IMG/VR virus record: IMGVR_UViG_2645727821_000004
Span: 1-14,460 of that record
Origin: a virus
Lineage: Duplodnaviria > Heunggongvirae > Uroviricota > Caudoviricetes
Strand: one strand, 5' to 3'
Length of the DNA: 14,460 nucleotides
A model generated the notes under the pieces. That model had not been told where the DNA came from. It saw only the letters and a program-made list of their open reading frames with translations, and made no database searches. Below, piece after piece: positions 265 through 14,460 of this stretch; position 1 is the first letter of the stretch, and each line of letters begins with the position of its first letter. The position numbers and the translations under genes were made by a program.

Positions 265-438
265 TATCGCGCCCTCAACAATGAGTTTTGTGATGCGGTG
301 CCTGGTGCCTCCAGGTGACGTTAACCAGTTAACAATTAACACCGGATACAGAGAATCCACCCATAACACTGTTTTTGGTTTTAACTGTTCCGCGTGCGCT
401 TAGCCGCATTCACCGCATCACAAAATTCACTTTAAAAA

Positions 439-491
439 GGGCGGCAGAGCAGTCACGGAGTAAAACTGATACCGCCAAACGTCACCAGAAA
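439..491 (-). ncRNA. dicF: DicF small RNA (53 nt), Hfq-dependent ftsZ-targeting sRNA of the dicB operon
   Basis: Minus-strand sequence TTTCTGGTGACGTTTGGCGGTATCAGTTTTACTCCGTGACTGCTCTGCCGCCC matches the DicF sequence as I recall it, followed by TTTTT (plus 434-438). No ORF on that strand; dicB follows. Confidence 0.8.
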
Positions 492-1037
492 ATTGATAAC
501 AGAGGGCGTTGCAGCGGGGTTGTCACTTAAGCGTATGGTCAACCTGACAACCCGGTGTTCTCAACGGGGAAGGAATAACCCCGCCATACTTACCGTCGCG
601 CCATTTCGCGGAGTGCCACAACCGGAAGCGCACGGTCGAATTAAATTTAACGACACCGTACAGAGAGACCAATTTCGCCGTGCACTTTCGCGTTATGCCC
701 TGGCTTTTCAGGGATATATCCTTTCAGTAAACTGTCAGTACCGGATTCTTATCCGTGTCCGGCGCACGACCACACGTGACAGCGTGTTGGCCTCCATTTT
801 TAACCCAGAACCTCAATGGAGGATAAAATGCCAAACAAAAAAAGAAATCCGCTTATTGAAAAACAGATTGAATGCCTGGTAAATCAACTCAAGCAATCAG
901 GGTTATTAAAAACTCATTCAGAGTTGAGGCTCACAGAATCAGCATTCGACGATAAATTAAATAATGTCCTTTATAATGGCATTATTGATTTTAATCGTTC
1001 TTTTGGTCGCCGCGGCCCTGCTGGTGTTTCCTTATAA

Positions 1038-1676
1038 TTACCAGTCAATCCAGAGCGGACCGTGTTCAGCGTAAATATAACTGTACACATCCAGATTATA
1101 TTTGTGGTCTGTTAAGAACAGGCCGCAAATACATGCCGAAGCTTCCAGGGCAGCGGCTCTGTTACTGAATAACCATGTAGCAACATTCCAGCGTTTTTCT
1201 GCATCCCAGTCTTTCTCAAGGCCTGATACCATGAAGAAACCGTTAGTGTTGCCATCAAATAATTCTGTTTCCAGATTTTTAAGCAATGCCTGATGGACTC
1301 TTGCCAGGTATTCCGCCGGAATTTCGCCACGAATTCTGATGAGATTGTCATAAACAAACATGTTCCCCGCATATGGCGATTTTTCTTTCTTGTTTTTTAA
1401 ACCAGCATCATGAGCAAACTGTTCAATTTCTTCTTCCGTTGGTTTCGTATTGATGTTTTGCGCTGTCGTTTCTGCAATTTTCTTTGCCACACTCTCTGAG
1501 TCGTGTTTATTTACAGACGCACAGAAATACAATCCGGTAAACGCATCGCGCACATTACGAGCCATATTATCAGTGTCTTTTTTCGTTACCGATTCCAATG
1601 CAAGTTCGTTCAGACGATGACGAAGTGTGTGTGCTGCAATCTCCTGGATTGAAGTAGGTAAATCTTTAAATTCCAT
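1038..1676 (-). CDS. hypothetical protein (212 aa), unknown function, in repressor-controlled leftward operon
   Basis: Track ORF 1038..1688. ATG at 1676-1674 is preferred because GAGG sits 6 nt upstream on the minus strand; the ATG at 1688 has no SD. Soluble protein, no motif I recognise. Confidence 0.55.
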   Translation of the reverse strand: MEFKDLPTSIQEIAAHTLRHRLNELALESVTKKDTDNMARNVRDAFTGLYFCASVNKHDSESVAKKIAETTAQNINTKPTEEEIEQFAHDAGLKNKKEKSPYAGNMFVYDNLIRIRGEIPAEYLARVHQALLKNLETELFDGNTNGFFMVSGLEKDWDAEKRWNVATWLFSNRAAALEASACICGLFLTDHKYNLDVYSYIYAEHGPLWIDW

Positions 1677-1687
1677 CGTCAACCTCA

Positions 1688-1840
1688 TCAGTCAGAGTTT
1701 CTTGCTAACCAGCGATGCGCGCCAGCTTCGGTTTTAAACGTTTTACTTTTGGTATACGTCATCGCGGTGAACGTGCCGTCCTGGTTGGGAAACACGCCGT
1801 ACACCAGAGATTCGTTGTTGCCAAGATCGATAGTATCCAT
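1688..1840 (-). CDS. small protein (50 aa), first gene of leftward operon; YdfA-like by position
   Basis: Track ORF 1688..1921. Internal ATG at 1840-1838 has an AGG-N5 SD and gives MDTIDLGNNESLVYGVFPNQDGTFTAMTYTKSKTFKTEAGAHRWLARNSD, matching the expected ~51-aa YdfA size. The 77-aa start at 1921 also has a GAGG SD and cannot be excluded. Confidence 0.5.
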   Translation of the reverse strand: MDTIDLGNNESLVYGVFPNQDGTFTAMTYTKSKTFKTEAGAHRWLARNSD

Positions 1841-2022
1841 GCTGACCTCATTTCCCCTTAACGCCGGGGTAGCGGAACAAAAACCTGCTGCATAGTTATT
1901 AAAGTTGAACCCTGCCGTCATGTTCTTACGCCTCGGGCTGGCTACTTAACCCCTGACCACTGCCTGGTAACTCGAAGTATTGCCCTGCGTTCTGTGGGGC
2001 GGGGTGGGTTGGCATGAAAGGA

Positions 2023-2063
2023 AGGATACCCATGGGTATTTAAAAAGTAAATACCCATGGGTA
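2023..2063 (-). promoter_or_regulatory. Leftward early promoter candidate (PL/PdicB-like) with two identical 12-bp palindromic operators
   Basis: Perfect palindrome TACCCATGGGTA at 2027-2038 and 2052-2063 (25-bp centre spacing). Minus-strand -35 TTTACT (plus 2046-2051) and -10 TATCCT (plus 2023-2028) with 17-bp spacer; the -10 overlaps operator 1. Confidence 0.5.
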
Positions 2064-2107
2064 ATTTTTTTTGATGTATCTTAACCGGTGACTGATTGTT
2101 TGGTGAG

Positions 2108-2527
2108 TTATGATGCGTTTTGTGCTTTCTTTTTACGGATTTCTTCGTAGATCATATTGTAATACTGTTTTTTCTCTTCAAGAGTTTTTAATAAGTTATC
2201 CGCTTCACTTTCTGGTAGTTCGTCTAAGAGATCTAAAAAAATACGTTGTCGTGGCGTTAGAACCCTTGTTTCATAATTGGAGGCTGTGTTCGTTGATGAT
2301 GAAACGATACCATCCATCCATCCCCGAGGTAACCCAAAGGACTCTTCTATAATCTCCACCATATCATCTGCGATCCGTTTTTTTCCTTTTTTCCCCTCTG
2401 GGTACAACATTCTTGATACATAAGAAGGCTCGCGACCGATCTTTCTGGCCACGTTAACCGCTTTACCATCGCATTTCTCATCACGAATTTTGATGAGTTG
2501 TTGTCGTCTAAATTCATATTTGTCCAT
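2108..2527 (-). CDS. Prophage immunity repressor, HTH, DicA/RacR-like; no S24 peptidase domain
   Basis: Track ORF 2108..2569 (TTG start would read through the operators); ATG at 2527-2525 preferred, 139 aa. HTH-like AVNVARKIGREPSYVSRML. C-terminus with LPESEADNLL resembles recalled DicA (ALPESEQD). Divergent from the cro-like gene across an operator-rich 100-bp region. Confidence 0.7.
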   Translation of the reverse strand: MDKYEFRRQQLIKIRDEKCDGKAVNVARKIGREPSYVSRMLYPEGKKGKKRIADDMVEIIEESFGLPRGWMDGIVSSSTNTASNYETRVLTPRQRIFLDLLDELPESEADNLLKTLEEKKQYYNMIYEEIRKKKAQNAS

Positions 2528-2548
2528 AGGTAAATAATAGATGCGATT

Positions 2549-2603
2549 ACCGCAAGGTAAACAACCCAAGGGTATTGACTTTTGTTTACCCGCAGGTATT
2601 CTT
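2549..2603 (+). promoter_or_regulatory. Rightward early promoter (PR-like) with three operator 12-mers (OR1-3 analogues)
   Basis: TACC-N4-GGTA 12-mers at 2549-2560, 2563-2574 and 2587-2598. -35 TTGACT at 2575-2580, -10 TATTCT at 2597-2602 (16-bp spacer). AAGGAG SD at 2617-2622 precedes the cro-like ATG at 2628. Confidence 0.55.
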
Positions 2604-2627
2604 TGCTGTGTTTACTAAGGAGTAGCT

Positions 2628-2909
2628 ATGGAAGAATTAAGAATATTTCTCAATTCTCTTTCGTCAGATGAACAGCGTATGTTTGCATGTGAGTGTGGTA
2701 CTAGCATCGGTTATCTAAGAAAGGCATTGAGTAAAGGTCAAGTGTTAGGGGCATCGTTATGTGTCCTTATTGAGCGAGCCAGTAATGGTGAAGTTACACG
2801 TCAGCAACTAAGGCCTTTTGATTGGATGAATATTTGGCCTGAGCTGGAAGATACCAAAACGTTAACACAACCACTTTCTAGGAGCTTGATTCATGAAAAT
2901 CAGGCATGA
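2628..2909 (+). CDS. Cro-like HTH regulator (YdaS/DicC-type)
   Basis: 93 aa with strong SD; HTH-like CECGTSIGYLRKALSKG; a ...QLRPFDW motif resembles recalled YdaS. First gene rightward of the operators. Confidence 0.65.
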   Translation: MEELRIFLNSLSSDEQRMFACECGTSIGYLRKALSKGQVLGASLCVLIERASNGEVTRQQLRPFDWMNIWPELEDTKTLTQPLSRSLIHENQA

Positions 2910-3318
2910 ACACATCCGCATGGCGATGAATGCATGGGCGCGTCCTGATGGTGAAAAAGTTCCTGCGGCTGAGATAACCAGGGCGTATTTCGAACTGGGT
3001 ATGACGTTCCCGGAACTGTACGACGACAGCCACCCAGAAGCCCTGGCGCGTAATACCCAGAAAATTTTCCGCTGGGTAGAGAAAGACACCCCTGATGCAG
3101 TTGAAAAAATTCAGGCGTTGTTACCGGCGATCGAAAAGGCAATGCCGCCTCTGCTGGTGGCCAGAATGCGCAGCCACAGTTCAGCTTATTTTCGGGAGCT
3201 GGTGGAGATGCGGGAACGACTGGTGAGAGACGCTGATGATTTTGTCGCGGTGGCAATAGCTGGCTTCAACCAGATCAACCGTGGTGGCCCGGCCGGAAAT
3301 GCTGTGGCTGTGCATTGA
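2893..3318 (+). CDS. YdaT-like protein (CII functional analogue / toxic regulator family)
   Basis: 141 aa; AGGAG SD at 2880-2884. Starts MKIRHEHI and ends ...VH, with KIQALLPAI motif, as in recalled Rac YdaT. Overlaps the cro-like gene by 17 nt. Confidence 0.65.
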   Translation: MKIRHEHIRMAMNAWARPDGEKVPAAEITRAYFELGMTFPELYDDSHPEALARNTQKIFRWVEKDTPDAVEKIQALLPAIEKAMPPLLVARMRSHSSAYFRELVEMRERLVRDADDFVAVAIAGFNQINRGGPAGNAVAVH

Positions 3319-3389
3319 TCGGCAATATTCATACCGGATCTCTTTCGGTAATACGTGATTAAAAAGATTCGGTATCTGAAGAGGTTAGT

Positions 3390-4460
3390 ATGGCTAATGC
3401 CTGGCTCAGATTATGGCATGACATGCCAAATGACCCCAAGTGGCGAACCATTGCCCGGGTGTCAGGTCAGCCAATTGCAACAGTGATGGCTGTGTATATC
3501 CACCTCCTGGTGAGCGCGTCACGAAATGTCACGCGAGGTCACGTTGATGTCACGACCGAGGATTTGGCAAGCGCGCTCGATGTGACAGAAGAGGTGATTG
3601 ATTCAATTTTGCAGGCAATGCAGGGGCGGGTTCTGAAGGGGGATCTTATCACCGGATGGGAAAAACGCCAGGTACTGAAGGAGGATAACGGTAACGTTTC
3701 GCCAACCGCAAAATCCCCGGCAGAGCGCAAGAGAGCGCAGCGGGAGAGGGAAAGGCAGCGGGAGCAAAATGGCGACTGTCACGGCGTGTCACGAAATGTC
3801 ACGCACATGTCACGACGAGTCACGACAGATAAAGATACAGATAAAGATACAGATCAAGAAGATCAAAACACTATGGTTCATGGCGAGAAAAACGCCACGA
3901 ACCTGACAGGGGATGTTCAGACCGTCAATCCTGGTCAGCCGGCAGGCACGACACCGGAAGCCGATTCAGCGTATGCGCTGAAAGCCGATTCGGGCGCTGT
4001 GCAGCAGGCGATGGTCGCCGGACCGGAGAGATCACACCAACCGCAGCAGCCTGAAGCCGATTCCGCCCTTCAGCGGGAAGCCGATCGGGTAGTCCCGGAA
4101 AACACCGGGCAGCCTGTGGGACGAGTGGATTACCCGGACGGGTTCGAACAGGTCTGGCGGGAATATCCGCTGCGTGCCGGGGCAAATCCGAAGAAATCCG
4201 CGTTCAGTGCCTGGAAGGCCAGGTTACGCGAGGGGGTGCCACCGCAGGTCATGCTGGATGGTGTGAGGCGTTACGCGAGGTACCTGGCGGCGACCGGGAA
4301 AGCGGGAACGGAATTTGTTCAGCGGGCGACAACGTTTTTTGGACCTGACCGGAATTTTGAAAACCCCTGGTTGCTCCCGACTGGCGGGACGAACAACCAG
4401 CGTTGTGTGAATCATATTTCCGAACCGGATACCGAAATTCCACCAGGTTTCAGGGGGTGA
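3390..4460 (+). CDS. Replication initiator (lambda O-like / YdaU-like) containing an internal origin
   Basis: 356 aa; GAAGAGG SD. Lies immediately upstream of the DnaC-like gene; iteron arrays and an AT-rich tract inside the coding sequence (next two features) parallel lambda ori within O. Confidence 0.7.
   Translation: MANAWLRLWHDMPNDPKWRTIARVSGQPIATVMAVYIHLLVSASRNVTRGHVDVTTEDLASALDVTEEVIDSILQAMQGRVLKGDLITGWEKRQVLKEDNGNVSPTAKSPAERKRAQRERERQREQNGDCHGVSRNVTHMSRRVTTDKDTDKDTDQEDQNTMVHGEKNATNLTGDVQTVNPGQPAGTTPEADSAYALKADSGAVQQAMVAGPERSHQPQQPEADSALQREADRVVPENTGQPVGRVDYPDGFEQVWREYPLRAGANPKKSAFSAWKARLREGVPPQVMLDGVRRYARYLAATGKAGTEFVQRATTFFGPDRNFENPWLLPTGGTNNQRCVNHISEPDTEIPPGFRG
3518..3554. repeat. 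Iteron array 1: four GTCACG repeats at 10-11 bp periodicity
   Basis: GTCACG at 3518, 3528, 3538 and 3549, read directly from the sequence. Confidence 0.7.
3778..3866. repeat. Iteron array 2 (five GTCACG repeats) plus adjacent AT-rich tandem repeats with two GATC sites; putative replication origin
   Basis: GTCACG at 3778, 3788, 3798, 3809 and 3819. Tandem AGATAAAGATAC at 3827-3838 and 3839-3850. GATC at 3852-3855 and 3861-3864. Confidence 0.65.
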
Positions 4461-4466
4461 AGGATT

Positions 4467-5213
4467 ATGAAAAATATAGCGACAGGAGGCGTTCTTGAAC
4501 GTATCCGCAAGCTGGCACCACAGCATGTAACCGCGCCGTACCGGACGGCAGAAGAGTGGCGTGAGTGGCAACTTGCGGAAGGCCAGAAACGTTGCGAGGA
4601 GATCAACCGTCAGAATCGTCAGTTGCGGGTGGAAAAAATTCTGAATCGCTCCGGTATCCAGCCGTTGCACCGCAAATGTTCGTTTGCGAATTACCGGGTG
4701 CAGAACGACGGCCAGCGATATGCGCTGAGCCAGGCAAAATCCATCGCGGACGTACTGATAACCGGATGCACAAATTTCGTGTTCAGCGGTAAGCCGGGTA
4801 CCGGAAAAAATCACCTGGCAGCCGCCATTGGTAATCATCTTCTGGAGAAAGGTCGCAGCGTGATTGTGGTCACGGTGGCTGATGTGATGCTGGCGCTACA
4901 CGGCAGCTACGACAACAAAAACTCAGGCGAAAAATTTTTGCAGGGTTTGTGTGACGTTGACCTGCTGGTTCTGGATGAGATTGGCATGCAGCGTGATACG
5001 CGCAACGAACAGGTCACACTGAACCAGATCGTCGATCGCAGAACAGCCGCGATGCGCAGTGTCGGGCTGCTGACGAACCTGAACCATACCGCAATGAGCA
5101 CCCTGCTTGGCTGGCGCGTGATGGACCGCATGACCATGAACGGTGGGCGCTGGGTGAATTTTAACTGGGAGAGCTGGCGTCCGAATGTCGGTCAGCCAGG
5201 AATTGAAAAGTAA
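4467..5213 (+). CDS. DnaC-like AAA+ helicase loader (phage replication protein P analogue, YdaV-like)
   Basis: 248 aa. Walker A GKPGTGKNHLA and Walker B LLVLDEIG. Start 7 nt after the initiator stop, with GGTGAAGGA SD. Confidence 0.85.
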   Translation: MKNIATGGVLERIRKLAPQHVTAPYRTAEEWREWQLAEGQKRCEEINRQNRQLRVEKILNRSGIQPLHRKCSFANYRVQNDGQRYALSQAKSIADVLITGCTNFVFSGKPGTGKNHLAAAIGNHLLEKGRSVIVVTVADVMLALHGSYDNKNSGEKFLQGLCDVDLLVLDEIGMQRDTRNEQVTLNQIVDRRTAAMRSVGLLTNLNHTAMSTLLGWRVMDRMTMNGGRWVNFNWESWRPNVGQPGIEK

Positions 5214-5237
5214 TTTTTATCGGGGAGAAAAAATTTA

Positions 5238-6008
5238 ATGGAAACCGTTTTAGACGCACTGAAAGCGATGGGAAAAGCCACGTCGGTAGAACTGGCTACG
5301 CGACTTGATATCAGTCGTGAAGAAGTGCTGAACGAGCTGTGGGAACTGAAAAAGGCTGGCTTCGTTGATAAAAGCGTATACACCTGGCGTGTGGCTGGCG
5401 AAGGTGAATCCGGGGTAGCCGAAGAGCAGCCAGCACAATCTGAAGCACAGGATGTGCTAACCAGGGAGGTCGAACGAAAAGTTACCGCTGACATGATGAT
5501 TGAGTTTATCAGTCAGGAGGGGGCTAAAACGTGTGAGGAGCTGGCGGGTAAGTTCGGTGTCAGTACTCGCAAGGTTGCTTCCACGCTGGCGGTAGTAACC
5601 GCAACGGGGCGGCTGGCACGCGTTAATCAGAACGGTAAATTTCGTTACTGCATACCGGGCGATAATTTACCAGCAGAGCCGAAAGCTGCATCGGTAACAG
5701 AAGCTGATGGTAAATCCTTTCCTCTGCCATCAGGTGTTGCGTTACCAGTACAGGAGGCTGCAACACAGGAAGATATTAAAACAGAAACGGCGGCGGACAT
5801 TGTGCAGTCGCTACCACCGTTTACCGAAACGCAAGCGGATGACCTGGTTTTATCATCGCTGCATATGGCAAACCGCGAGCTGCGTCGGGCGAAAAGTTAT
5901 GTCCAGAAGTGGGAGCGTGTCTGCGCCGCGCTGCGGGAGCTGAACAAGCACCGGGATATTGTTCGACTGATTGTCGATTCCTCCAGTCGTATTGTGTCGG
6001 AAAAGTGA
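5238..6008 (+). CDS. hypothetical protein with two winged-helix-like modules and an acidic linker
   Basis: 256 aa; GGGAGA SD. wHTH-like segments [28 protein letters not shown] and [29 protein letters not shown]. Confidence 0.55.
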
Positions 6009-6022
6009 TTGCCGGAGGCGCT

Positions 6023-6445
6023 ATGGCAAAAGTATTTACACAGGAAGAGCGGGAAGATGTGAAGGCTCGCATTGTGGAACTGGTACGCAGGGATGGGCGG
6101 AAAACGCGTAAACAACTGGAAAATGAAACCGGGGCGACGAGACATCTGATAGAAGTTCTGACGAAAGAGCTGGTAGCCAGTGGTGTTGTATATGGCTCAG
6201 GGTATGGAATATTTCCTTCAGAGCAGGCACGTAAGGACTGGATGAAAGCCATTGAAAAGATGTCGAAAGCAAAGTCAAAGAAACTGGCTGTGGTTGATCC
6301 TTACCTTATCTGGTCATTACCAGACGGAGAAATACGTCGTTACGACAGGCGCCTGAACATGATTTGTCACGATTGCCGGAAGAGCGAAGCTATGCAGCGT
6401 GTACTGGCTTTCTATCAGGGTAATTTTCAGGAGGCGATACTGTGA
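6023..6445 (+). CDS. hypothetical winged-helix-like protein (141 aa)
   Basis: ATG at 6023 with GGAGG SD at 6014-6018, inside track ORF 5909..6445 whose GTG start overlaps the upstream gene. Confidence 0.5.
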   Translation: MAKVFTQEEREDVKARIVELVRRDGRKTRKQLENETGATRHLIEVLTKELVASGVVYGSGYGIFPSEQARKDWMKAIEKMSKAKSKKLAVVDPYLIWSLPDGEIRRYDRRLNMICHDCRKSEAMQRVLAFYQGNFQEAIL

Positions 6446-6502
6446 GTGAAATTAGCTATCAGGCTTCAATTACCGCTGGCATTCGCATCAAAGGAGAGGA
6501 GC

Positions 6503-6859
6503 ATGGAAATAAAACCAGAAGATGAGTTAAGCAATATCGTTTTATTTCCGATAAAAGAGGATGACCCTCGTAATCAGGTTAATTTTCTTTATGAGCCATC
6601 GGAAAGACCATATTGCCATCACACTTCTGTCCGGGTTGACGAAAAAGAGCGTCAGGTCCGCTGTAAAATCTGCGGTGCAGTTGTGGAACCATTTGACTGG
6701 ATGCTCTCTGTGGCGAAAAGAGAAACCAGGATGGCAGATGATGTAAAACAATTGCGCCAGGAGGAACGGGAAAGGCGAAAAAATATAGAAAAGCTAATTC
6801 AGATTGAGCGCAACGTGAAAGCGCGGATACGCAGGGCGACAAAAGCCCGAACTGAATAA
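6503..6859 (+). CDS. hypothetical zinc-ribbon protein (118 aa)
   Basis: ATG at 6503 with AAAGGAGAGGAG SD, inside track ORF 6446..6859. Candidate zinc ribbon CHH ... CKICG; basic coiled C-terminus. Confidence 0.5.
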   Translation: MEIKPEDELSNIVLFPIKEDDPRNQVNFLYEPSERPYCHHTSVRVDEKERQVRCKICGAVVEPFDWMLSVAKRETRMADDVKQLRQEERERRKNIEKLIQIERNVKARIRRATKARTE

Positions 6860-6955
6860 TTAAATTTGGCACAGAACATAAAATTAATCCTTAACCGGAG
6901 GGATTTATGCACCCTCAGAACATCAGGAGGCCACCCGAAAAGGCGGTAGTGAAAA

Positions 6956-7363
6956 ATGGCTGAATTAACCAAAGAGCAATTAATCGAAGAAGTTAAATTA
7001 AAAATAGCGATTGCGAAATGCCATCCCAATTCAGGCGTGGCACGAGTAGAGGGTGAGTTATTCAAAATTGCAGTGACATCGCTGGAAGCAGAACCGATAG
7101 CGTGGGAATGCGGTGAAAACATAATCCTGTTTAATCCTGACACAGTTGAAGCATACGCAAAACGTGCGGAGATATCACCTAAACCACTATTCGCCGCCCC
7201 ACCTGTGCTGGTAGTGCCTGAAGGGCTTGTTAAAGCGGTACGCTTTTATGAACAGGTAAAGTGTGAGAATCCGCCAGCCGAAACCGGAGCATGGAAAGAC
7301 GCTGTTGACTGGGTACTCGAAGAAGCTTGCCAGGCTGTAAACATTGGCATCAAAGGAGGGTGA
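6956..7363 (+). CDS. hypothetical phage protein (135 aa), DUF550-like N-terminal module
   Basis: N-terminus LTKEQLIEEVKLKIAIAK ... VTSLEAE is paralogous to the N-terminus of the 7656..8471 product. Confidence 0.5.
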   Translation: MAELTKEQLIEEVKLKIAIAKCHPNSGVARVEGELFKIAVTSLEAEPIAWECGENIILFNPDTVEAYAKRAEISPKPLFAAPPVLVVPEGLVKAVRFYEQVKCENPPAETGAWKDAVDWVLEEACQAVNIGIKGG

Positions 7364-7364
7364 T

Positions 7365-7652
7365 ATGGCAACTTTGCAGGAATTAATCGACCTGACGCCA
7401 GAACAGGAAAAAGCGTGGAATCGCCTTGTGAAGGCTGTAAAGGATTTCAGGGCAGCCGGAGGAAAGTTTTATAGCGTCCTGGACACGCTGAGCGCATACA
7501 ACGGCGAGCACGTTGCCAGCATTGATAACGATAAGGGCTACCACACTGCAAGCGTCTATATGCCTAGCATTGATGCGCCAGGGCTAACCAGTTGGGCTGA
7601 TGATTGGCACGGCATCACGCTGAAAGATGGCGTTGAAGTGGATGAGGACTAA
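7365..7652 (+). CDS. hypothetical protein (95 aa)
   Basis: ATG at 7365 with AAAGGAGGG SD at 7352-7360, inside track ORF 7344..7652 (TTG start). Confidence 0.5.
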   Translation: MATLQELIDLTPEQEKAWNRLVKAVKDFRAAGGKFYSVLDTLSAYNGEHVASIDNDKGYHTASVYMPSIDAPGLTSWADDWHGITLKDGVEVDED

Positions 7653-7655
7653 CAC

Positions 7656-8471
7656 ATGACTACTTTTACCGACAAAGAACTGATTAAAGAAATCAAAGAG
7701 CGCATAGGCAGCCTGGACGTTCGAGACAATATTGAGCGCCGGTCGTATGAAATTGCACTGGCATCGCTGGAACGCGAACAGATTCGCCACGAGCATGCCA
7801 AATGGTCTGACTCCACATTTGGCTGCGTTGGCCCCATTGGTCCACTGAAACACCTCTCAAAAGAGGCACTGGAAGCCGCAGCCGAACCAGACGATCTTAG
7901 CGAGTGGGCTGATATGCAGTTTCTGTTGTGGGATGCACAGCGCCGTGCTGGCATCAGCGATGCTGAAATTAACGTTGCTATGGAAGATAAATTGAAGATC
8001 AACATGGAGCGCCAGTGGCCTGAGCCAAAAGATGGTGAGCCTCGCTTGCACATTAAAGAACCCGGCAACTCTCCGGTAATTCCGGATGGTTTATCCACGG
8101 TATGCGCTGAGGCTTATCAGGTTGTAGGAGTTATGGCAGATGCGCTTGGTGTATTCGGTGATGCAGCAGTACAGAAAGTTCTGGATAACCTGTCACAGCA
8201 AAAACTTGTTCACAGAGATGTGCTGCCGTTCTCGCTTCCGGTAACTCCGGATGGTTGGATAAGCTGTAGTGATCGAATGCCTGAAAAGGGCCAGAACGTG
8301 CTTATTTCGGTGAATTTCGATAGCTCTCTGGTTGAACCGCTAATATGCTCCGCACGCTATACCGGAAGCACCTTTCGGCGCGGAGATGCAACGATTAAGC
8401 CGGGTAATGGTATTGAGCAAGCAACTCACTGGATGCCGCTACCGGAACCGCCGCAGGAGGTGAATCAATGA
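7656..8471 (+). CDS. phage protein with DUF550-like N-terminus and DUF551-like C-terminus
   Basis: 271 aa. C-terminal PDGWISCSDRMPEKGQNVLISV ... THWMPLPEPP is typical of DUF551 as I recall it. Confidence 0.6.
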   Translation: MTTFTDKELIKEIKERIGSLDVRDNIERRSYEIALASLEREQIRHEHAKWSDSTFGCVGPIGPLKHLSKEALEAAAEPDDLSEWADMQFLLWDAQRRAGISDAEINVAMEDKLKINMERQWPEPKDGEPRLHIKEPGNSPVIPDGLSTVCAEAYQVVGVMADALGVFGDAAVQKVLDNLSQQKLVHRDVLPFSLPVTPDGWISCSDRMPEKGQNVLISVNFDSSLVEPLICSARYTGSTFRRGDATIKPGNGIEQATHWMPLPEPPQEVNQ

Positions 8472-8551
8472 GCTGGCCTGAAGCGTTCACAACGGTAGGA
8501 ATTGCAATGGCGGTGGCGCTGGTGGTGTATTCTATTTGCCGCTGGGGGTAA
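8468..8551 (+). CDS. small hydrophobic peptide (27 aa, MSWPEAFTTVGIAMAVALVVYSICRWG)
   Basis: ATG overlaps the upstream stop (ATGA at 8468-8471); AGGAGG SD at 8455-8460. One predicted transmembrane helix. Below the track size cut-off. Confidence 0.4.
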   Translation: MSWPEAFTTVGIAMAVALVVYSICRWG

Positions 8552-8711
8552 GGTATTGAAAAACGCCCACACACATAAGTTGGGCACCTGAGTTGCGGGG
8601 ATAGGGAGTTAGTTAAATAGTTATACAACAATACCTGATTTTGTATTGAAGCAAGGAAGAGGTTGCCACATATTGAATCATGCACGTGTACGTCAAATGC
8701 GGGAGGTCATC

Positions 8712-8801
8712 GTGCTGGTTCTGAAATGTGCGCTGGCTATTGCGGCTGTAATGGCAATTTATTGTCTTGTTATTGTTCTTATGGATCACCTTTCTGATTG
8801 A
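8712..8801 (+). CDS. small hydrophobic peptide (29 aa, GTG start, MLVLKCALAIAAVMAIYCLVIVLMDHLSD)
   Basis: GGGAGG at 8701-8706, 5 nt before GTG at 8712; stop TGA at 8799-8801. Possible promoter TTGAAG-N17-CATATT upstream (~8648-8676). Confidence 0.3.
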   Translation: MLVLKCALAIAAVMAIYCLVIVLMDHLSD

Positions 8802-8955
8802 TTTTATATTGGCGAGGTGACGAGAGTTAAGTAGAATTGCTGCGGGTGCTTGAGGCTATCTGCCTCGGGCATGAACAGCAACGGCAGATAGATAAAAGCC
8901 CCAGTTAACATTACGCGTCCTGCAAGACGCTTAACATTAATCTGAGGCCCAATCT

Positions 8956-9153
8956 ATGCTTCACAAACGTAGGTTAGCCTCTTACGAGCCGAAAGGCAAG
9001 GAGAAGCAGGCTATGAAGCAGCAAAAGGCGATGTTAATCGCCCTGATCGTCATCTGTTTAACCGTCATAGTGACGGCACTGGTAACGAGGAAAGACCTCT
9101 GCGAGGTACGAATCCGAACCGGCCAGACGGAGGTCGCTGTCTTCACAGCTTAA
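8956..9153 (+). CDS. mok-like reading frame (in-frame N-terminal extension of hok)
   Basis: ATG at 8956 in frame with hok, as in recalled chromosomal mokC/hokC. 65-aa track ORF. Confidence 0.4.
   Translation: MLHKRRLASYEPKGKEKQAMKQQKAMLIALIVICLTVIVTALVTRKDLCEVRIRTGQTEVAVFTA
9013..9153 (+). CDS. hok: Hok/Gef-family type I toxin (HokD/RelF-like), apparently truncated by a premature stop (46 aa)
   Basis: MKQQKAMLIALIVICLTVIVTALVTRKDLCEVRIRTGQTEVAVFTA matches recalled HokD up to a TAA at 9151-9153. In-frame continuation GAA CCT GAG GAG TAA encodes EPEE-stop, the canonical Hok C-terminus. Confidence 0.8.
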   Translation: MKQQKAMLIALIVICLTVIVTALVTRKDLCEVRIRTGQTEVAVFTA

Positions 9154-9239
9154 GAACCTGAGGAGTAAGAGACCAGGCGGGGGAGAAATCCCTCGCCACC
9201 TCTGATGTGTCAGGCATCCTCAATGCACCCACACTTAAC

Positions 9240-9256
9240 CCGCTTCGGCGTTTTTT
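9240..9256 (+). terminator. putative intrinsic terminator at 3' end of hok transcript
   Basis: CGC-TTCG-GCG short stem with UUCG tetraloop, then T6 (9251-9256). Stem is short. Confidence 0.4.
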
Positions 9257-9311
9257 CGTTGATTAACTCTAGTTATCAGAGAACCGAACTTTTACTGATG
9301 GGGGCAGGGAG

Positions 9312-9704
9312 ATGAAGAAACTTGTTTTAGTTGCAGGTGTAATGATTGCAACAGTAATGTTGGGAGGGTGTGCAGCAAAGGTCGATCCTGCGTTGAAAGC
9401 AGAAGCAATGAAGCCACTAACATGTAAAGATGAAAAGCAATGTGACTTTTATTGGAAACGCGCGCAATTCTGGTTGGCTAATAATTCCGCATGGAAAATT
9501 CAAACGGCGACAGACACGCTAATTTCCACTTATAACCCCTCACCAAATAGTCCACTCCTCGCTTATCAAGTGAGTAAAATGCCAAATGAAGATGGATCCT
9601 CAAGAATTTTCATCCAGCCTTTTTGCGATAATATGTTTGGCTGTCAACCAAACCTCTATCAGGCGGTTGTTTCCTTCAAAAACTTCGTTAGAACTGGGCA
9701 GTAG
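9312..9704 (+). CDS. prophage lipoprotein (130 aa), function unknown
   Basis: Signal peptide MKKLVLVAGVMIATVMLGGC with lipobox LGGC; GGGAG SD. Confidence 0.65.
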   Translation: MKKLVLVAGVMIATVMLGGCAAKVDPALKAEAMKPLTCKDEKQCDFYWKRAQFWLANNSAWKIQTATDTLISTYNPSPNSPLLAYQVSKMPNEDGSSRIFIQPFCDNMFGCQPNLYQAVVSFKNFVRTGQ

Positions 9705-9896
9705 TGTATAGCGGGGACGGTAAATTATTAGTGAAAACGCCGTGAACCCTCACCCAATGTGAGCTAACCCCATCAAACATGACTGTGATGATTAGCATAC
9801 CCGCTTCAGCGAGTTTTGTTTTTTCCGGGAATTCTGGTTTACAATCTGCACGCCAGCCTGAACAACTGGCACCTGCTGCGCCAGCAGAGAAAACAA

Positions 9897-10169
9897 ATGG
9901 CGCACAATACCAAAAATCACAATTCTGATGCCGTTCGTGCCAGCAGGCATGGGCGGCGTTCGCGCGTATTTAAAACCGACTGGTACCAACACCCTCCATG
10001 CACTGAAGAACAGGCCGAATGGCTGATTCAGTGTTACCGCAGACACGGATACGAGATTAAGAAAGCCCTCAGCCTCGATTATCGTCACTGGATAATCTCC
10101 GTCAGGCTTCCTTACTCCGAACGCCCACCGCGTCCGTCCCGCACATTCCAGCAACGGATCTGGAGGTAA
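9897..10169 (+). CDS. small basic protein (90 aa), Rem-like by position
   Basis: ATG at 9897 inside track ORF 9816..10169. Sits immediately upstream of the YdfU-like gene as rem does in Qin. Candidate promoter TTGTTT-N18-TACAAT at 9816-9845. Confidence 0.45.
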   Translation: MAHNTKNHNSDAVRASRHGRRSRVFKTDWYQHPPCTEEQAEWLIQCYRRHGYEIKKALSLDYRHWIISVRLPYSERPPRPSRTFQQRIWR

Positions 10170-10170
10170 C

Positions 10171-11217
10171 GTGCGGGTATTACTTCGACCTGTTCTGATA
10201 CCGGAACTCGGGCTGGTGGTCCTTAAGCCCGGTCGTGAATCCATGCCGGTATTTCACAATCCTCGAGTGCTGGTGGAGCCGGAACCGAAAAGTATGTGCG
10301 GCCTGCCATCCGGAGTCGTCCCTGCCGTTCGCCAGCCGCTGGCGGAGGATAAATCATTACTGCCATTTTTCAGCGATGATCGGGTGATTCGTGCTGTTGG
10401 CGGCGCTGGGGCACTGTCTGACTGGCTGTTGCGTCATGTCAAATCCTGCCAGTGGCCTCATGGTGACTATCATCACAGTGAAATCGTCATACATCGTTAC
10501 GGTACCGGCGCGATGGTGTTGTGCTGGCACTGCGACAACCAGCTGCGTGACCAGACATCCGAATCACTCGAGCAACTTGCTCATCAAAACCTGTCAGCAT
10601 GGATGATTGACGTCATCGGTCACGCAATAAGCGGTACGCAGGAGCGTGAATTATCTCTGGCTGAATTATCCTGGTGGGCGGTCCGCAATCAGGTGGCGGA
10701 CGCGCTACCGGAAGCGGTATTACGTCGTTCGCTGGGGTTGCGTGCGGAAAAAATCCGCTCAATGTACCGTGAAAGCGACATCGTACCGGGAGAGCAGACC
10801 GCCACCAGCATACTGAAGCAGCGCACAAAAAATCTTGCGCCGCTGCCTCACGCCCACCAGCAAAACCCGCCACAGGAAGAGGCGGTGGTCAGCATTGCCG
10901 TTGATCCGGAGTCTCCGGAATCTTTCATGAGACGACCTAAACGTCGCCGTTGGGTAAAGGAGAAATATACGCGCTGGGTGAAGACACAGCCGTGTGCGTG
11001 TTGTGGTCAACCAGCCGACGATCCCCATCACCTGATTGGTCACGGTCAGGGAGGGATGGGAACAAAGGCCCACGATATTTTCACGCTACCGTTGTGCCGG
11101 GAACATCACAACGAACTTCATGCGGATCCGCTGGCGTTCGAAGAAAAGCATGGCTCTCAGGTTGATTTAATTTTTCGTTTTCTTGATCACGCCTTTGCAA
11201 CCGGCGTGCTTGGGTAA
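10171..11217 (+). CDS. YdfU-like DUF968 protein (348 aa) with HNH-like C-terminal Cys/His cluster
   Basis: GTG start 1 nt after the upstream stop; GGAGG 5 nt upstream. C-terminal CACCGQPADDPHHLIGHGQGG ... CREHHNELH. Length matches recalled YdfU (~349 aa). Confidence 0.7.
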   Translation: MRVLLRPVLIPELGLVVLKPGRESMPVFHNPRVLVEPEPKSMCGLPSGVVPAVRQPLAEDKSLLPFFSDDRVIRAVGGAGALSDWLLRHVKSCQWPHGDYHHSEIVIHRYGTGAMVLCWHCDNQLRDQTSESLEQLAHQNLSAWMIDVIGHAISGTQERELSLAELSWWAVRNQVADALPEAVLRRSLGLRAEKIRSMYRESDIVPGEQTATSILKQRTKNLAPLPHAHQQNPPQEEAVVSIAVDPESPESFMRRPKRRRWVKEKYTRWVKTQPCACCGQPADDPHHLIGHGQGGMGTKAHDIFTLPLCREHHNELHADPLAFEEKHGSQVDLIFRFLDHAFATGVLG

Positions 11218-11229
11218 AAGAGGTTACTG

Positions 11230-11592
11230 ATGCGTATAGAGCTTGTTTTGCCTTACCCGCCAACGGTGAACACCTACTGGCGACGTCGTGGCAGCACATA
11301 TTTTGTATCAAAAGCCGGTGAGCGTTATCGCCGGGATGTGGCGCTTATTGTTCGTCAGCAGCGACTGAAATTAAATCTGTCCGGTAGGCTGGCAATCCGA
11401 ATTATTGCAGAGCCACCGGATAAACGCCGCCGTGACCTGGACAATATCCTGAAAGCACCACTGGATGCGCTGATGCATGCCGGACTTCTCATAGACGACG
11501 AGCAGTTTGATGAAATTAATATAGTGCGCGGTCAGCCTGTTCCTGGTGGGCGGCTGGGCGTGAAGATTTACGAAATAATGCATGACGGGTAG
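11230..11592 (+). CDS. rusA: RusA Holliday-junction resolvase
   Basis: 120 aa. PYPPTVNTYWRRR ... DKRRRDLDNILKAPLDAL ... GGRLGVKIYEI aligns to the RusA family including the catalytic acidic cluster. AAGAGG SD. Confidence 0.85.
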   Translation: MRIELVLPYPPTVNTYWRRRGSTYFVSKAGERYRRDVALIVRQQRLKLNLSGRLAIRIIAEPPDKRRRDLDNILKAPLDALMHAGLLIDDEQFDEINIVRGQPVPGGRLGVKIYEIMHDG

Positions 11593-11600
11593 GTCCAAAA

Positions 11601-12422
11601 ATGAAACTGGAAGATTTACCGAAATACTATTCCCCAAAATCGCCAGGTCTGACTGATGCATCCGTCTCGACGTCAAAAGATGTGCTGAGCATCACTGATG
11701 TGATGGCTGCGCAGGGTATGACACAAAACCGGGCTGAGATGGGATTTTCTGCGTTCCTGGGGAAAATGGGCATCAGTATGAATGACAGGGCGCGGGCAAC
11801 AGAATTACTGGCAGATTATGCACTCAGTCGGTGCGATCGCGTGGCGGCGTTGAGAAAACTTCCGGCAGAAATAAAACCGGCAGTGATGCGTATTATGGCT
11901 TCGTACGCTTTTGAGGATTATGCCCGCAGTGCAGCGAGTAAAAAACAGTGCCCTTGTTGCGGTGGGAAAAAATTTATTGAAAGCGTAGTTTTTACAAACA
12001 AGGTCCAGTATCCGGATGGCAAGCCGCCAGTATGGGCAAAGTGTACAAAAGGCGTGTATCCGTCTTACTGGGAGGAATGGAAAAAAGTCCGGGAGGTGGT
12101 GAAAGTCTCCTGTCCAGAATGCAAAGGGAAAGGGGAGGTTTCTACGGCCTGTAAAGATTGCCGTGGACGTGGTGTTGCCATTCATCGTGAAGAGTCGGAA
12201 AAACGGGGTATGCCTGTTATCAGAGACTGCCAGCGTTGTGGTGGTCGTGGCTATGAAAGATTACCGTCGACGGAGGCATTTAATGCCATATGTGAGGTAA
12301 CAAAGCAGATAACACGCGCGTCATGGGAAAAAACTGTTAAGCAATTCTATGACACGCTGGTGATTAAGTTTGATATTGAGGAAGCATGGGCAGAGCGGCA
12401 GTTAAAAAAGGTAACCAGATAA
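11601..12422 (+). CDS. putative late-gene antiterminator Q (QuuQ/phage-82-like), with four CxxCxGxG zinc-finger-like motifs
   Basis: 273 aa. Position between rusA and a promoter/terminator pair is the Q slot. Motifs CPCCGGKK, CPECKGKG, CKDCRGRG, CQRCGGRG. Call is by position and zinc-binding character. Confidence 0.55.
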   Translation: MKLEDLPKYYSPKSPGLTDASVSTSKDVLSITDVMAAQGMTQNRAEMGFSAFLGKMGISMNDRARATELLADYALSRCDRVAALRKLPAEIKPAVMRIMASYAFEDYARSAASKKQCPCCGGKKFIESVVFTNKVQYPDGKPPVWAKCTKGVYPSYWEEWKKVREVVKVSCPECKGKGEVSTACKDCRGRGVAIHREESEKRGMPVIRDCQRCGGRGYERLPSTEAFNAICEVTKQITRASWEKTVKQFYDTLVIKFDIEEAWAERQLKKVTR

Positions 12423-12427
12423 CAATG

Positions 12428-12456
12428 TTGATTTTTCCGGAATCTGTGGTAAATTT
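12428..12456 (+). promoter_or_regulatory. candidate late promoter (PR'-like) just downstream of Q
   Basis: TTGATT at 12428-12433 with TAAATT/AAATTT 16-17 bp downstream; 6 nt after the Q stop. Confidence 0.35.
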
Positions 12457-12502
12457 ATCCTAACGATGGGCGTTTTATGCCTGACGTTAAAAGATTTTTT
12501 AC

Positions 12503-12526
12503 AACCCGCCGCCGTGCGGGTTTTTT
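12503..12526 (+). terminator. intrinsic terminator (tR'-like)
   Basis: Stem AACCCGC/GCGGGTT (12503-12509 / 12516-12522), loop CGCCGT, followed by a T-run. Confidence 0.65.
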
Positions 12527-12630
12527 GTTGGTTTAACAGGTTATAATGTATAGTGCGAAACTGCCTGTTCAGCAGAATCATTTTGTTTGTAGTAGAGTTC
12601 ACAAGTCGTCATTATCAGGCAAAGAGATTT

Positions 12631-13032
12631 ATGGTATTAAAGTATCAGCCGTCTGTTCGTTCTGTTTTAATGTGTGATTTTCGGGGAATGGTTGTTCCGG
12701 AAATAGTCAAGGCCAGGCCAGTGGTAGTAGTATCCAGAAACAGACACAACAATCAATTGGTAACAGTGGTACCAATAAGCACTACTGAACCGATCCCTCG
12801 CAGAGATTGCCATCATGAGTTATCAGAAAACCCCATTCCTGGTAATGAGCATATTACTTGCTGGGTAAAATGTGACATGTTGATGACGGTTTCATTGAGC
12901 CGACTGGATCGCATAAAAACCAGAAACTGGGAGGGGCGAAATTATATTGTTCCTATGATTGCGGAAGATGAGTTTGAGAATATTAAACGGGCGGTATTGC
13001 ACGGGATAGGGATGGCTTATCTGTATCGATAA
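12631..13032 (+). CDS. MazF/PemK-fold toxin-like protein (133 aa) with no adjacent antitoxin ORF
   Basis: By-eye parallel to MazF: CDFRG ... E..KARPVVVVSRNRHNNQLVTVVPISTT vs MazF VDFDP ... RPAVVLSPFMYNNKTGMCLCVPCTT; C-terminal ...IKRAVLHGIG vs ...KINVLIG. Perfect TATAAT at 12542-12547 upstream. Confidence 0.6.
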   Translation: MVLKYQPSVRSVLMCDFRGMVVPEIVKARPVVVVSRNRHNNQLVTVVPISTTEPIPRRDCHHELSENPIPGNEHITCWVKCDMLMTVSLSRLDRIKTRNWEGRNYIVPMIAEDEFENIKRAVLHGIGMAYLYR

Positions 13033-13067
13033 TCGAAAACGATTATCGAATTCGATATAAATTTATA

Positions 13068-13096
13068 TTGACACACATAGTGTGTTGACTGATACT
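13068..13096 (+). promoter_or_regulatory. strong sigma70-like promoter candidate with embedded inverted repeat
   Basis: TTGACA at 13068-13073, 17-bp spacer, GATACT at 13091-13096. Spacer holds ACACA-TAG-TGTGT and a second TTGAC. Confidence 0.5.
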
Positions 13097-13185
13097 GTCG
13101 CTGTACCCTGATGGGACTTGTGAGACTTCCGAACAGGAAGCCAGGAGTAGCGATAAGGTGATGACAAGCCTGCTGCCCCTGTGTA

Positions 13186-13217
13186 AAAGGCATCTTAATG
13201 GTGCCTTTGTCATTTTT
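13186..13217 (+). terminator. terminator-like hairpin 1
   Basis: Stem AAAGGCA/TGCCTTT (13186-13192 / 13202-13208), 9-nt loop, T5 at 13213-13217. Confidence 0.45.
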
Positions 13218-13228
13218 ATCAAAAGTTC

Positions 13229-13251
13229 CCCGCCATTGAGCGGGTTTTTTT
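13229..13251 (+). terminator. intrinsic terminator 2
   Basis: Stem CCCGC/GCGGG (13229-13233 / 13240-13244), loop CATTGA, T7 at 13245-13251. Confidence 0.65.
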
Positions 13252-13374
13252 ATGCCTGAAAAACGACACAGGACGTTAAACGCGCTGGTGGTTGCGAATA
13301 TCAGTTTTTCAGCTTGCTGGCTTTTCAGACAAGAGTTATTGGTATGTCACGTTAACCAGAAAAGGGAAAAAGAC

Positions 13375-13572
13375 ATGCTAAAACAGCAGGATATGACCGA
13401 AACCGCCAGAGTGGTGTTTAATGAATTAAGCGTCACCGAACCGACGACCGTCGGGGAGATTGCGCAGAATACTTACCTTTCACGCGAATGCTGCCAGTTA
13501 ATACTGACCCAGCTTGTTATGGCGGGCCTGGCAGATTATCAGTTTGGTTGTTACAGACGCCTTCCGCAGTGA
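13375..13572 (+). CDS. small winged-helix DNA-binding protein (65 aa), PapI/FaeA-like
   Basis: ATG at 13375 with AAGGGAAA SD, inside track ORF 13252..13572. ARVVFNELSVTEPTTVGEIAQNTYLSRECCQLILTQLVMAGLADYQ aligns by eye to PapI; the similarity is modest. Confidence 0.45.
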   Translation: MLKQQDMTETARVVFNELSVTEPTTVGEIAQNTYLSRECCQLILTQLVMAGLADYQFGCYRRLPQ

Positions 13573-13581
13573 AGGCTTTTT
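13559..13581 (+). terminator. intrinsic terminator overlapping the wHTH gene stop codon
   Basis: Stem GCCTTC/GAAGGC (13559-13564 / 13571-13576), loop CGCAGT, T5 at 13577-13581. Confidence 0.65.
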
Positions 13582-13722
13582 AATTTGTGGTAATGGGCGG
13601 CTGGTGGGTGTTAGCGGCACCTGCCAGCCATCTGCTCATGCGTTGGGGTCACAAGCAAACCTCAGGCCCATCTGCTTTGCGCAAAAGCGGTATGAGCCTA
13701 TCAGAGAAGCGCTTATTGATCT

Positions 13723-14460
13723 ATGGCTAATACTGTAAAAATATCCAGTTGTGAGTTAATCAACGCTGATTGCCTGGAATTTATCCAGACCTTACCGGAA
13801 AACTCTGTCGATCTGATAGTCACAGACCCGCCATACTTTAAAGTGAAACCCAACGGCTGGGACAATCAGTGGAAAGGGGACGAAGATTACCTTAAGTGGC
13901 TGGACCACTGTCTGGCCCAGTTCTGGCGGGCGTTAAAACCTGCCGGAAGCCTTTACCTGTTCTGTGGGCATCGCCTGGCATCTGATATTGAGATCATGAT
14001 GCGTGAACGTTTCAACGTGCTTAACCATATCATCTGGGCGAAGCCGTCCGGACGTTGGAATGGGTGTAATAAAGAAAGTCTGCGCGCATATTTTCCTGCC
14101 ACAGAGCGCGTTCTGTTTGCTGAACATTACCAGGGGCCATATCGCGGCAAAAGTGACGGCTATGCGGCAAAAGAAAGGGAACTCAAACAGCACATAATGG
14201 CACCGCTGATTTCGTATTTCAGGGATGCTCGTGCCGAACTGGGTATAACGGCAAAACAAATTGCCGAAGCCACAGGTAAGAAAAATATGGTTTCCCACTG
14301 GTTTGGTGCCAGTCAGTGGCAGTTGCCGAATGAGGCTGACTATCGGAAGTTACAGGCACTGTTTTCCCGTATAGCGGCAGAGAAGTTTCAGGAACAACAA
14401 CTGGAACAACCACACCACCAGCTGGTGGCATCTTATGATTCACTGAATCGCAAATATTCT
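13723..14460 (+). CDS. DNA methyltransferase, N6-adenine/N4-cytosine beta class (DPPY motif), 5' part; runs off the window end
   Basis: Open frame from ATG 13723 to window end (246 codons). LPENSVDLIVTDPPY ... AGSLYLFCG ... HIIWAKP follows the CcrM/M.HinfI-type motif order. Not in the track because it has no stop in the window. Confidence 0.8.
   Translation, partial: MANTVKISSCELINADCLEFIQTLPENSVDLIVTDPPYFKVKPNGWDNQWKGDEDYLKWLDHCLAQFWRALKPAGSLYLFCGHRLASDIEIMMRERFNVLNHIIWAKPSGRWNGCNKESLRAYFPATERVLFAEHYQGPYRGKSDGYAAKERELKQHIMAPLISYFRDARAELGITAKQIAEATGKKNMVSHWFGASQWQLPNEADYRKLQALFSRIAAEKFQEQQLEQPHHQLVASYDSLNRKYS

Follow-up and report, generated by a model that had tools for sequence, protein, structure and literature searches.

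MazF-family endoribonucleases are among the best-studied bacterial toxins, and to our knowledge the antitoxin is a protein in all MazF families. ToxN, the toxin of type III toxin-antitoxin (TA) systems, resembles Kid/MazF, so the toxin folds are distantly related, and an orphan antitoxin RNA carried by a phage is known for type III (pseudo-ToxI of phage phiTE). Here, we analyzed a stretch of 14,460 nucleotides (nt) of Caudoviricetes DNA (IMG/VR record IMGVR_UViG_2645727821_000004, positions 1 to 14,460; hereafter the window), which is the early-right and late-leader portion of a lambdoid prophage. Attention centered on the post-Q region, meaning all of the window 3' of the antiterminator gene Q. 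This region is a mosaic late-operon leader of two unrelated modules, one of which joins a MazF-fold toxin gene to a gene for a structured small RNA (sRNA). We hold with moderate confidence that this sRNA is the antidote of the toxin, acting in a type III-like manner. A preliminary description of the same DNA had seen here a single four-part system replacing the lysis genes; the observation was largely right and the single lysis-replacing system wrong, and the point of interest is the toxin-sRNA pair, which comprises the following features.

12631-13032, plus strand: gene of a PemK/MazF-family ("YifN"-type) endoribonuclease toxin, 133 amino acids (Pfam PF02452)
13068-13096, plus strand: sigma-70 promoter of the sRNA, TTGACA (from 13068), 17-nt spacer, GATACT (ending at 13096); 10/12 consensus matches
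13103-13216, plus strand: structured sRNA of ~112 nt, defined by covariance model, covariation, and minimum free energy (MFE) fold
13103-13117, plus strand: sRNA helix P1
13118-13125, plus strand: sRNA joining strand ACUUGUGA
13126-13140, plus strand: sRNA helix P2
13142-13181, plus strand: sRNA helix P3
13160-13167, plus strand: invariant loop GAUGACAA, within P3
13186-13208, plus strand: sRNA terminator hairpin, with the conserved tail UUUGUCAUU

The toxin gene product matched Pfam PF02452 (PemK_toxin) at 52 bits (E 9e-14; cutoff 23.1). This was its sole match in the Pfam scan, with none to the ToxN/AbiQ family, and PF02452 was present in 61 of 61 homologs. The top 50 Foldseek matches of its AlphaFold2 (AF2) model (predicted local distance difference test, pLDDT, 90.8) in the PDB all belonged to the MazF family, including MazF, MoxT, and YdcE, with template-modeling scores of 0.65 to 0.81. 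Alignment to Escherichia coli MazF by hhalign placed E24 on E24, R29 on R29, and S50 opposite T52, and the three toxin residues were invariant among 17 homologs. Judged by this model and alignment, the protein is a true PemK/MazF-family member with the MazF fold and catalytic residues intact, in agreement with the fold assigned in the preliminary description. It belongs to PHROG 15698, whose function is unknown, and was matched by neither PADLOC nor NCBIfam models.

No protein antitoxin is conserved beside the toxin. Clustering of the neighboring open reading frames (ORFs) within 700 to 900 nt of toxin loci yielded no ORF family common to different genera, the only clusters reflecting synteny within a genus or spurious ORFs antisense to the RNA, and no antitoxin-like gene adjoining the toxin was called in the 8 gene-annotated loci. 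Genes upstream of the toxin varied and included two Q families, Mor, and a methyltransferase.

The sRNA, by comparison, accompanies the toxin almost without fail. A protein-first scan with one genome per species gave 251 loci, 80 of which were kept, spanning Pseudomonas, Caulobacter/Brevundimonas, Massilia, Acinetobacter, Rhodocyclaceae, Geobacter, Planctomycetota, and others. The covariance model (CM) placed the sRNA on the same strand, 7 to 190 nt 3' of the toxin stop, in 86 of 87 toxin loci (79 of 80 from the scan and 7 of 7 others), and gave one weak off-target match in 547 kb. The toxin gene is preceded in Enterobacter by a Q of the PF03589 type, in Xenorhabdus by a Q of the PF06530 type, and in a Mu-like prophage by Mor/gp27; all three have holin or lysin genes after it, and nucleotide similarity among these relatives continues beyond the toxin stop into the RNA unit. 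Elsewhere, the neighbors are an unrelated helix-turn-helix gene after toxin and RNA in E. coli C5 and chromosomal genes in Pseudomonas, where the pair occupies chromosomal sites without phage context. In enterobacterial prophages, the gene is always found behind a terminator, with a late activator (Mor or a Q of either family) on one side and the lysis genes on the other. This is the position expected of an antidote-less late host shut-off factor made after Q antitermination, with the RNA as its 3' untranslated region and terminator. We consider that explanation very unlikely, given that the RNA has its own conserved promoter, has a structure far exceeding the needs of a terminator, and persists without toxin, and that the same pair is chromosomal and nonphage in Pseudomonas and other genera.

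Searches starting from the RNA revealed an asymmetry between the partners. In IMG/VR, 26 RNA copies had a toxin, 15 had none, and 1 lay at a contig edge; in metagenomes, 30 copies had upstream toxin homology (a few a fragment only), 16 had none, and 3 lay at contig edges. About one-third of RNA copies therefore lacked a toxin or retained toxin fragments only. Toxin without RNA is almost never found and RNA without toxin often, the signature expected of a toxin and its antitoxin. An intact sRNA followed a toxin fragment away from any contig edge in L221 (residues 73-132), L175 (77-130), and L194 (1-72), consistent with toxin decay ahead of the antidote. In L250 (toxin residues 81-132), only 380 nt precede the RNA, so the partial match may be a contig-edge cut. 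Four RNA-only copies from IMG/VR (L131, L160, L169, and L174) have diverged from the E. coli sequence with all helices and the GAUGACAAG loop kept, and L174 has its own promoter (TTGACT-17-AATACT); these copies may be phage-borne orphan antidotes. The RNA-only loci had no alternative partner gene in common. Pseudomonas-type RNA-only copies from metagenomes (L242, L201, L236, L213, and L254) lay directly after an ORF that we take to be a HigA-like antitoxin gene, which is longer in L213 and L254 and looks shortened by comparison in L242, L201, and L236. Such arrangements may be TA islands, or the RNA may have inserted into genes of other TA systems. A first search pattern for the RNA (GATGACAAGCC-N13-GTGAA) gave 31 matches in IMG/VR, all due to chance and none CM-confirmed, and a P1/J pattern was used instead.

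The sRNA itself is strongly structured. Against a model built from 28 sequences of relatives (CM R1), the window sRNA scored 91.5 bits (E 1e-17), and its MFE of -42 kcal/mol (z = -3.99 vs. shuffles) corresponds to the same helices as the consensus. The ORF-less promoter-to-terminator unit noted in the preliminary description is thus real beyond chance. From 5' to 3', the consensus consists of P1 (CCC/GGG), a joining strand rCUUGyGAGACU, the variable hairpin P2, and P3 with an inner 3-bp helix and the invariant 8-nt loop GAUGACAA, followed by GUGAA, a GC-rich terminator, and the tail UUUGUCrUU. Four helices covary. In a plain MAFFT alignment, not fitted to the model, compensatory double-sided changes occurred in 17 of 25 predicted pairs. 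In an 89-row CM alignment, which is fitted to the model, 97.1% of cells were paired, 23 of 25 pairs changed on both sides, and 483 cells were compensatory; none of 500 shuffles reached any of five measures, and slid controls paired at 39 to 63%. The promoter is conserved along with the RNA, lying 6 to 7 nt 5' of GTwCCC, a spacing kept in nearly all lineages across phyla, with a -35 box of TTGaca/TTGcaa, a spacer of ~17 nt, and a -10 box of gATAcT/CATAtT. Complementarity of the loop to the joining strand (CUUGU/ACAAG) as well as to the 3' tail (UUGUCAU/AUGACAA) makes loop-joining strand and loop-tail pseudoknots possible, the segments being too nearly invariant for a covariation test.

Rfam 15 gave no match at the sRNA position in the window, either at the gathering score or at E <= 10, and none to the sRNA in seven diverse loci at E <= 0.1. 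Two coding interpretations of the RNA unit were rejected: the only ORF for a small peptide (MGLVRL...) is disrupted by a P2-loop indel in Enterobacter, and ORFs from a second ATG (MTSLL...) vary between 11 and 36 codons and run through terminators. Mimicry of 16S/23S rRNA by the loop (e.g., 16S 1187 GGGGAUGACGUCAAGUC) was likewise rejected, matches being no better than shuffles (p ~0.12). In E. coli K-12 (L094; NC_000913.3, 4908-5040, minus strand), TTGACA-17-GATAAT and a short element occur 3' of the yifN (PemK-family) pseudogene. The element comprises a P1-like hairpin, the strand CCUGCGAAGCC, a terminator, and the tail UUUUGCCAU (CM 10.7 bits, E 0.13), and could be related to the sRNA as a degenerate or a minimal form. 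The yifN locus was rejected, the downstream sequence being just a truncated RNA-like remnant.

Several points weigh against a type III-like antidote. The toxin belongs to PemK rather than to ToxN/AbiQ, and the sRNA is single-copy and downstream with its own promoter, whereas known type III antitoxins are upstream repeat arrays. The CM-derived alignment, being fitted to the model, is biased toward the model structure. Intact RNA-only copies could mean a toxin-independent role of the RNA, and exact complementarity of at least 9 nt between the RNA and the toxin initiation region occurred in 8 of 53 leaders vs. 5.7% of control windows, a weak excess. The last two points each lead to an alternative.

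Taken at face value, the complementarity would make the sRNA a trans-acting antisense regulator (type I-like) of the toxin mRNA leader, blocking translation or triggering decay. The RNA segment GACUUGUGA is indeed complementary to UCACAAGUC at 12598-12606 in the E. coli leader, as are 11 to 12 nt of the RNA loop to the leader in Enterobacter. However, such sites are lineage-specific and missing from most lineages, 6-mers complementary to the invariant loop were found in 4 of 80 leaders vs. a background of 8%, and RNAduplex energies were no better than those of control windows (mean z +1.1). An invariant loop and complex fold, set against highly variable leaders, fit a protein or fixed-target ligand better, and we judge antisense control unlikely as the main mode of action. 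Neutralization at the protein level is preferred because unrelated toxin leaders accompany a loop and fold that do not vary across phyla, and because loop-complementary 6-mers are not enriched in leaders and duplex energies do not exceed controls. Given the weak excess of longer matches at lineage-specific sites, antisense pairing may still contribute.

The RNA-only copies, for their part, would suit a system without any TA function, in which the MazF-fold protein processes or partners the sRNA as a ribonucleoprotein, or in which a phage regulatory sRNA with its own targets has an optional protein. About a third of RNA copies being toxin-less, some of them diverged yet structurally intact, is compatible with this, as are prophages of the E. 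coli Z1323CEC0011 type (L005, see below), in which the RNA is fused to the late-promoter leader as a would-be constitutive short late transcript. Such a role seems improbable considering that the protein conserves the active-site residues of a family of toxic RNases, that the toxin almost never occurs without the RNA, that toxin fragments beside intact RNA form the decay pattern of a toxin and antidote, and that the module is also chromosomal in Pseudomonas without phage context.

The antidote interpretation suggests the following sequence of events. In the lysogen, transcripts from the late promoter PR' would end at the first terminator (t1), keeping the toxin level low, and the sRNA, made constitutively from its near-consensus promoter, would keep the toxin inactive. 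The sRNA is predicted to bind the toxin protein, most likely through the GAUGACAA hairpin loop as a pseudo-substrate. Failure of the RNA supply, caused by transcription shut-off by an infecting phage or by loss of the element, would then free the toxin; a labile sRNA would be depleted after phage shut-off of host transcription, as in ToxIN-type abortive infection. During late growth, Q-modified polymerase would pass t1, the toxin gene, both terminators, and the winged helix-turn-helix (wHTH) and methyltransferase genes into the lysis genes, raising toxin mRNA late, and this Q-dependent read-through could let toxin mRNA outrun the sRNA supply. The wHTH protein and methyltransferase would be expressed with the late genes, the latter presumably methylating progeny DNA. 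In RNA-only phages, the RNA may serve as a decoy. Generalizing further, PemK/"YifN"-type RNases and the ~112-nt sRNA may constitute an undescribed and widespread TA class, in which one structured RNA with the GAUGACAA loop would neutralize a MazF-family toxin, with RNA-only phages, some with the RNA fused to PR', using the RNA as an anti-defense decoy against hosts or prophages that bear the toxin, a proposal we put forward tentatively and with somewhat more doubt than conviction.

The toxin-sRNA pair forms a cassette of its own within the late leader, bordered by the following features.

11601-12422, plus strand: antiterminator Q gene, 273 amino acids (Pfam PF03589 Antiterm, E 5e-52, plus a DnaJ-type zinc finger); context, outside the module
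12428-12455, plus strand: candidate late promoter PR', TTGATT, 16-nt spacer, TGgTAAATT (extended -10)
12503-12530, plus strand: terminator t1, left copy of the duplicated tR' (hairpin 12503-12522 and T run)
12582-13078, plus strand: 497-nt stretch exactly missing in toxin-less E. coli S19-651 (L003), containing the toxin ORF and the -35 box of the sRNA promoter
13229-13251, plus strand: terminator t2, right tR' copy (hairpin 13229-13244); SfV-type backbone homology begins here (query position 830)

The two terminators are direct repeats with 82% identity (12505-12526 and 13229-13250), and a second direct repeat, TTTTATGCCTGA, occurs at 12473 and 13248. Since the single tR' of phage SfV aligns to both t1 and t2, ~0.7 kb sits between two copies of the tR' region, and toxin and ORF-less RNA unit thus make up a separate cassette of that size. 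In S19-651, the deletion junction relative to the window joins cagcagaatcat to agagtgttgactgatact (aatcat/agagtgttgac), with the RNA body retained. PR' is an inferred assignment because it fell below the threshold of the consensus scan and was read from the sequence; the same candidate was found after the same Q type in E. coli Z1323CEC0011, where it leads directly into the RNA body. This fusion, which lacks t1, toxin, and a separate promoter, lies at 2918-3140 of L005 and was also observed in L139, L143, L144, L162, L166, and L170; with PR' fused to its body, the conserved sRNA would be a constitutive short PR' transcript in these prophages.

Three further observations concern the leader. Between t1 and the toxin gene, at 12542-12547, is a perfect TATAAT without a recognizable -35 box. 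Toxin-less L003 has it too, so it is part of the inter-tR' segment that survives toxin deletion, not of the toxin stretch; it could be the source of low toxin transcription in lysogens. Across the toxin stop, just 5' of the sRNA -35 box, is a 13-nt tandem repeat (ATCGATAATCGAA x 2.5, 13025-13057), present in E. coli copies, not in those of Enterobacter or Xenorhabdus, which might be an operator or UP-like element. Finally, late-leader tRNA genes precede the lysis genes in relatives: Thr/Gly in L002 (8433-8586), Ile/Arg in L003 (4744-4905), and Arg/Thr/Gly in L005 (3274-3506). L002 and L003 have them 3' of the methyltransferase; in L005, where that gene is absent, they come immediately 3' of the sRNA. 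The tRNAs that precede stx in Stx phages are similarly placed.

Beyond t2, the post-Q region carries a separate module of two genes.

13375-13572, plus strand: winged-helix protein, 65 amino acids, homolog of SfV orf47 (AF2 pLDDT 91, H-H-H-E-E; PHROG 331)
13723-14460, plus strand, cut by the window end: beta-class DPPY DNA methyltransferase of the M.EcoGII/SfV orf48 family (motif VTDPPYF)

The wHTH gene is followed by a terminator-like hairpin (13559-13576). Its product, called "PapI-like" in the preliminary description, had no Pfam family at E <= 0.01 and no PADLOC or NCBIfam model match, and its top 50 Foldseek matches in the PDB were generic MarR/IclR/GntR-type wHTH domains with no PapI entry among them; the PapI comparison was accordingly dropped. 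Homologs are named TrmB-family or DprA-like WH in their sources. The methyltransferase matched Pfam N6_N4_Mtase (PF01555, E 1.7e-16) and PADLOC MTase_II (E 5e-101). Its C-terminal ~100 residues, the region of the FxGxG S-adenosylmethionine motif, lie past the window end. M.EcoGII is a 349-amino acid DPPY beta-class enzyme, nonspecific for adenine, encoded on a prophage, silent in the lysogen, and probably turned on at induction (PMC5778455). The enzyme of phage 1720a-02 is named as a close M.EcoGII homolog (PMC5778455), and since the window gene matches that of 1720a-02, its product is an M.EcoGII-family member. The 1.2-kb wHTH and methyltransferase part has 85 to 93% nucleotide identity to SfV, phiP27, mEp460, 1720a-02, and many Stx2 phages, and the SfV orf47-orf48/M.EcoGII module has the same genes in the same location after tR'. 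These two genes are thus a known and very common lambdoid pair, of which the window holds an ordinary member with nothing notably different.

Each unit listed in the preliminary description (MazF-fold ORF, ORF-less promoter-terminator unit, wHTH ORF, and DPPY methyltransferase) was found where it had been placed, and the modular, insulated layout it proposed holds, with the toxin-RNA cassette between the tR' copies and the wHTH and methyltransferase genes apart. That the four units together form one insulated defense or epigenetic system in place of the lysis cassette is extremely unlikely. DNA matching the post-Q query was found in 3,475 of 5,426 complete E. coli genomes, mostly by the wHTH and methyltransferase part. 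All four units were together in only ~20 of the 5,426, in the same order and with 90 to 93% identity, which is what speaks for such a system. Opposing it, the wHTH and methyltransferase genes occur without toxin and RNA in SfV, phiP27, Stx2 phages, and most E. coli genomes, and toxin and RNA are found without the other two. The three protein genes had been presented as a candidate conserved block, a link that was to be given up if they did not co-occur outside this phage or proved to be known independent morons; for the trio it is given up, the wHTH and methyltransferase genes being toxin-less in thousands of E. coli genomes and the toxin having other neighbors. Of the four units, only the toxin and the ORF-less RNA stand as the undescribed system, and these two had been treated as separate items. 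Replacement of the lysis cassette also fell away. The window ends within the methyltransferase gene, too early to show lysis genes, and in relatives holin and lysin genes come shortly after it: SfV has, in order, Q, tR', orf47 (wHTH), orf48 (351-amino acid methyltransferase), terminator, S, R, and Rz/Rz1, and E. coli VTB97432v, which matches the four units best, has Q, toxin, wHTH, methyltransferase, two tRNAs, two holins, and a GH108 lysozyme. For annotation, the genes after Q are independent morons assembled as a mosaic, the methyltransferase part being ordinary.

The remainder of the window encodes a cI-like repressor, cro-like and cII-like genes, replication genes, DUF968, and RusA. Two known RNAs were detected by Rfam. 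DicF sRNA lies at 439-490 (minus strand), at the prophage left end, as a full-length match of 76.7 bits. A hok/sok type I TA locus occupies 8844-9153 (plus strand), with sok at 8844-9018 (107.6 bits) and the Hok-like ORF ending at 9153; the same prophage therefore already has one classical RNA-antidote module.

A description of the toxin-RNA pair was not found in the literature (open-access papers and bioRxiv). If the antidote interpretation is true, a large branch of the MazF family would have an RNA antidote, the pair would represent a new RNA-based architecture of toxin control, in which a single structured sRNA lies downstream of the toxin under its own promoter, and hundreds of annotated "orphan" PemK genes would be explained. 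The RNA would also provide studies of RNA-protein recognition with a structured family that is new and deeply conserved and whose invariant loop is pseudoknot-prone. Its late-leader position in lambdoid and Mu-like prophages, together with the toxin-less phage RNAs, makes roles in abortive infection and counter-defense testable in E. coli.

Compared with described systems, the pair resembles the type II systems MazEF and PemIK (Kis-Kid) in toxin fold, in the E24/R29/T52-equivalent residues, and in size. It differs in having a conserved sRNA gene in the partner position and no MazE/PemI-type antitoxin gene, and lacking a protein antitoxin it fails the type II definition. As a short terminated RNA of the late leader, the sRNA is also reminiscent of lambda 6S RNA and StxS-type short PR' transcripts, and in the PR' fusions of the L005 type it would be that transcript; the window sRNA, by contrast, has its own promoter 0.6 kb 3' of PR', and the RNA also occurs far outside lambdoid phages. 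With type I systems such as hok/sok, it would share an RNA antidote with its own promoter adjoining the toxin gene. The toxin is, however, a 133-amino acid soluble RNase and not a small membrane peptide, and RNA and toxin gene neither overlap nor have more than weak conserved complementarity. The likeness to the type III systems ToxIN, CptIN, and TenpIN lies in an endoribonuclease, no protein antitoxin, and an adjacent noncoding RNA. Here, the toxin is a PF02452 protein without a ToxN match, and its RNA stands downstream with its own promoter, vs. upstream and behind a terminator in type III. The RNA is a single-copy, four-helix molecule of ~112 nt vs. a tandem array of 34- to 36-nt repeats; near the cassette there is no repeat array, the sole tandem repeat being that of 13 nt x 2.5 at the toxin stop. 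Thus, the pair fits type I poorly and, by the mechanism proposed here, would work most like type III.

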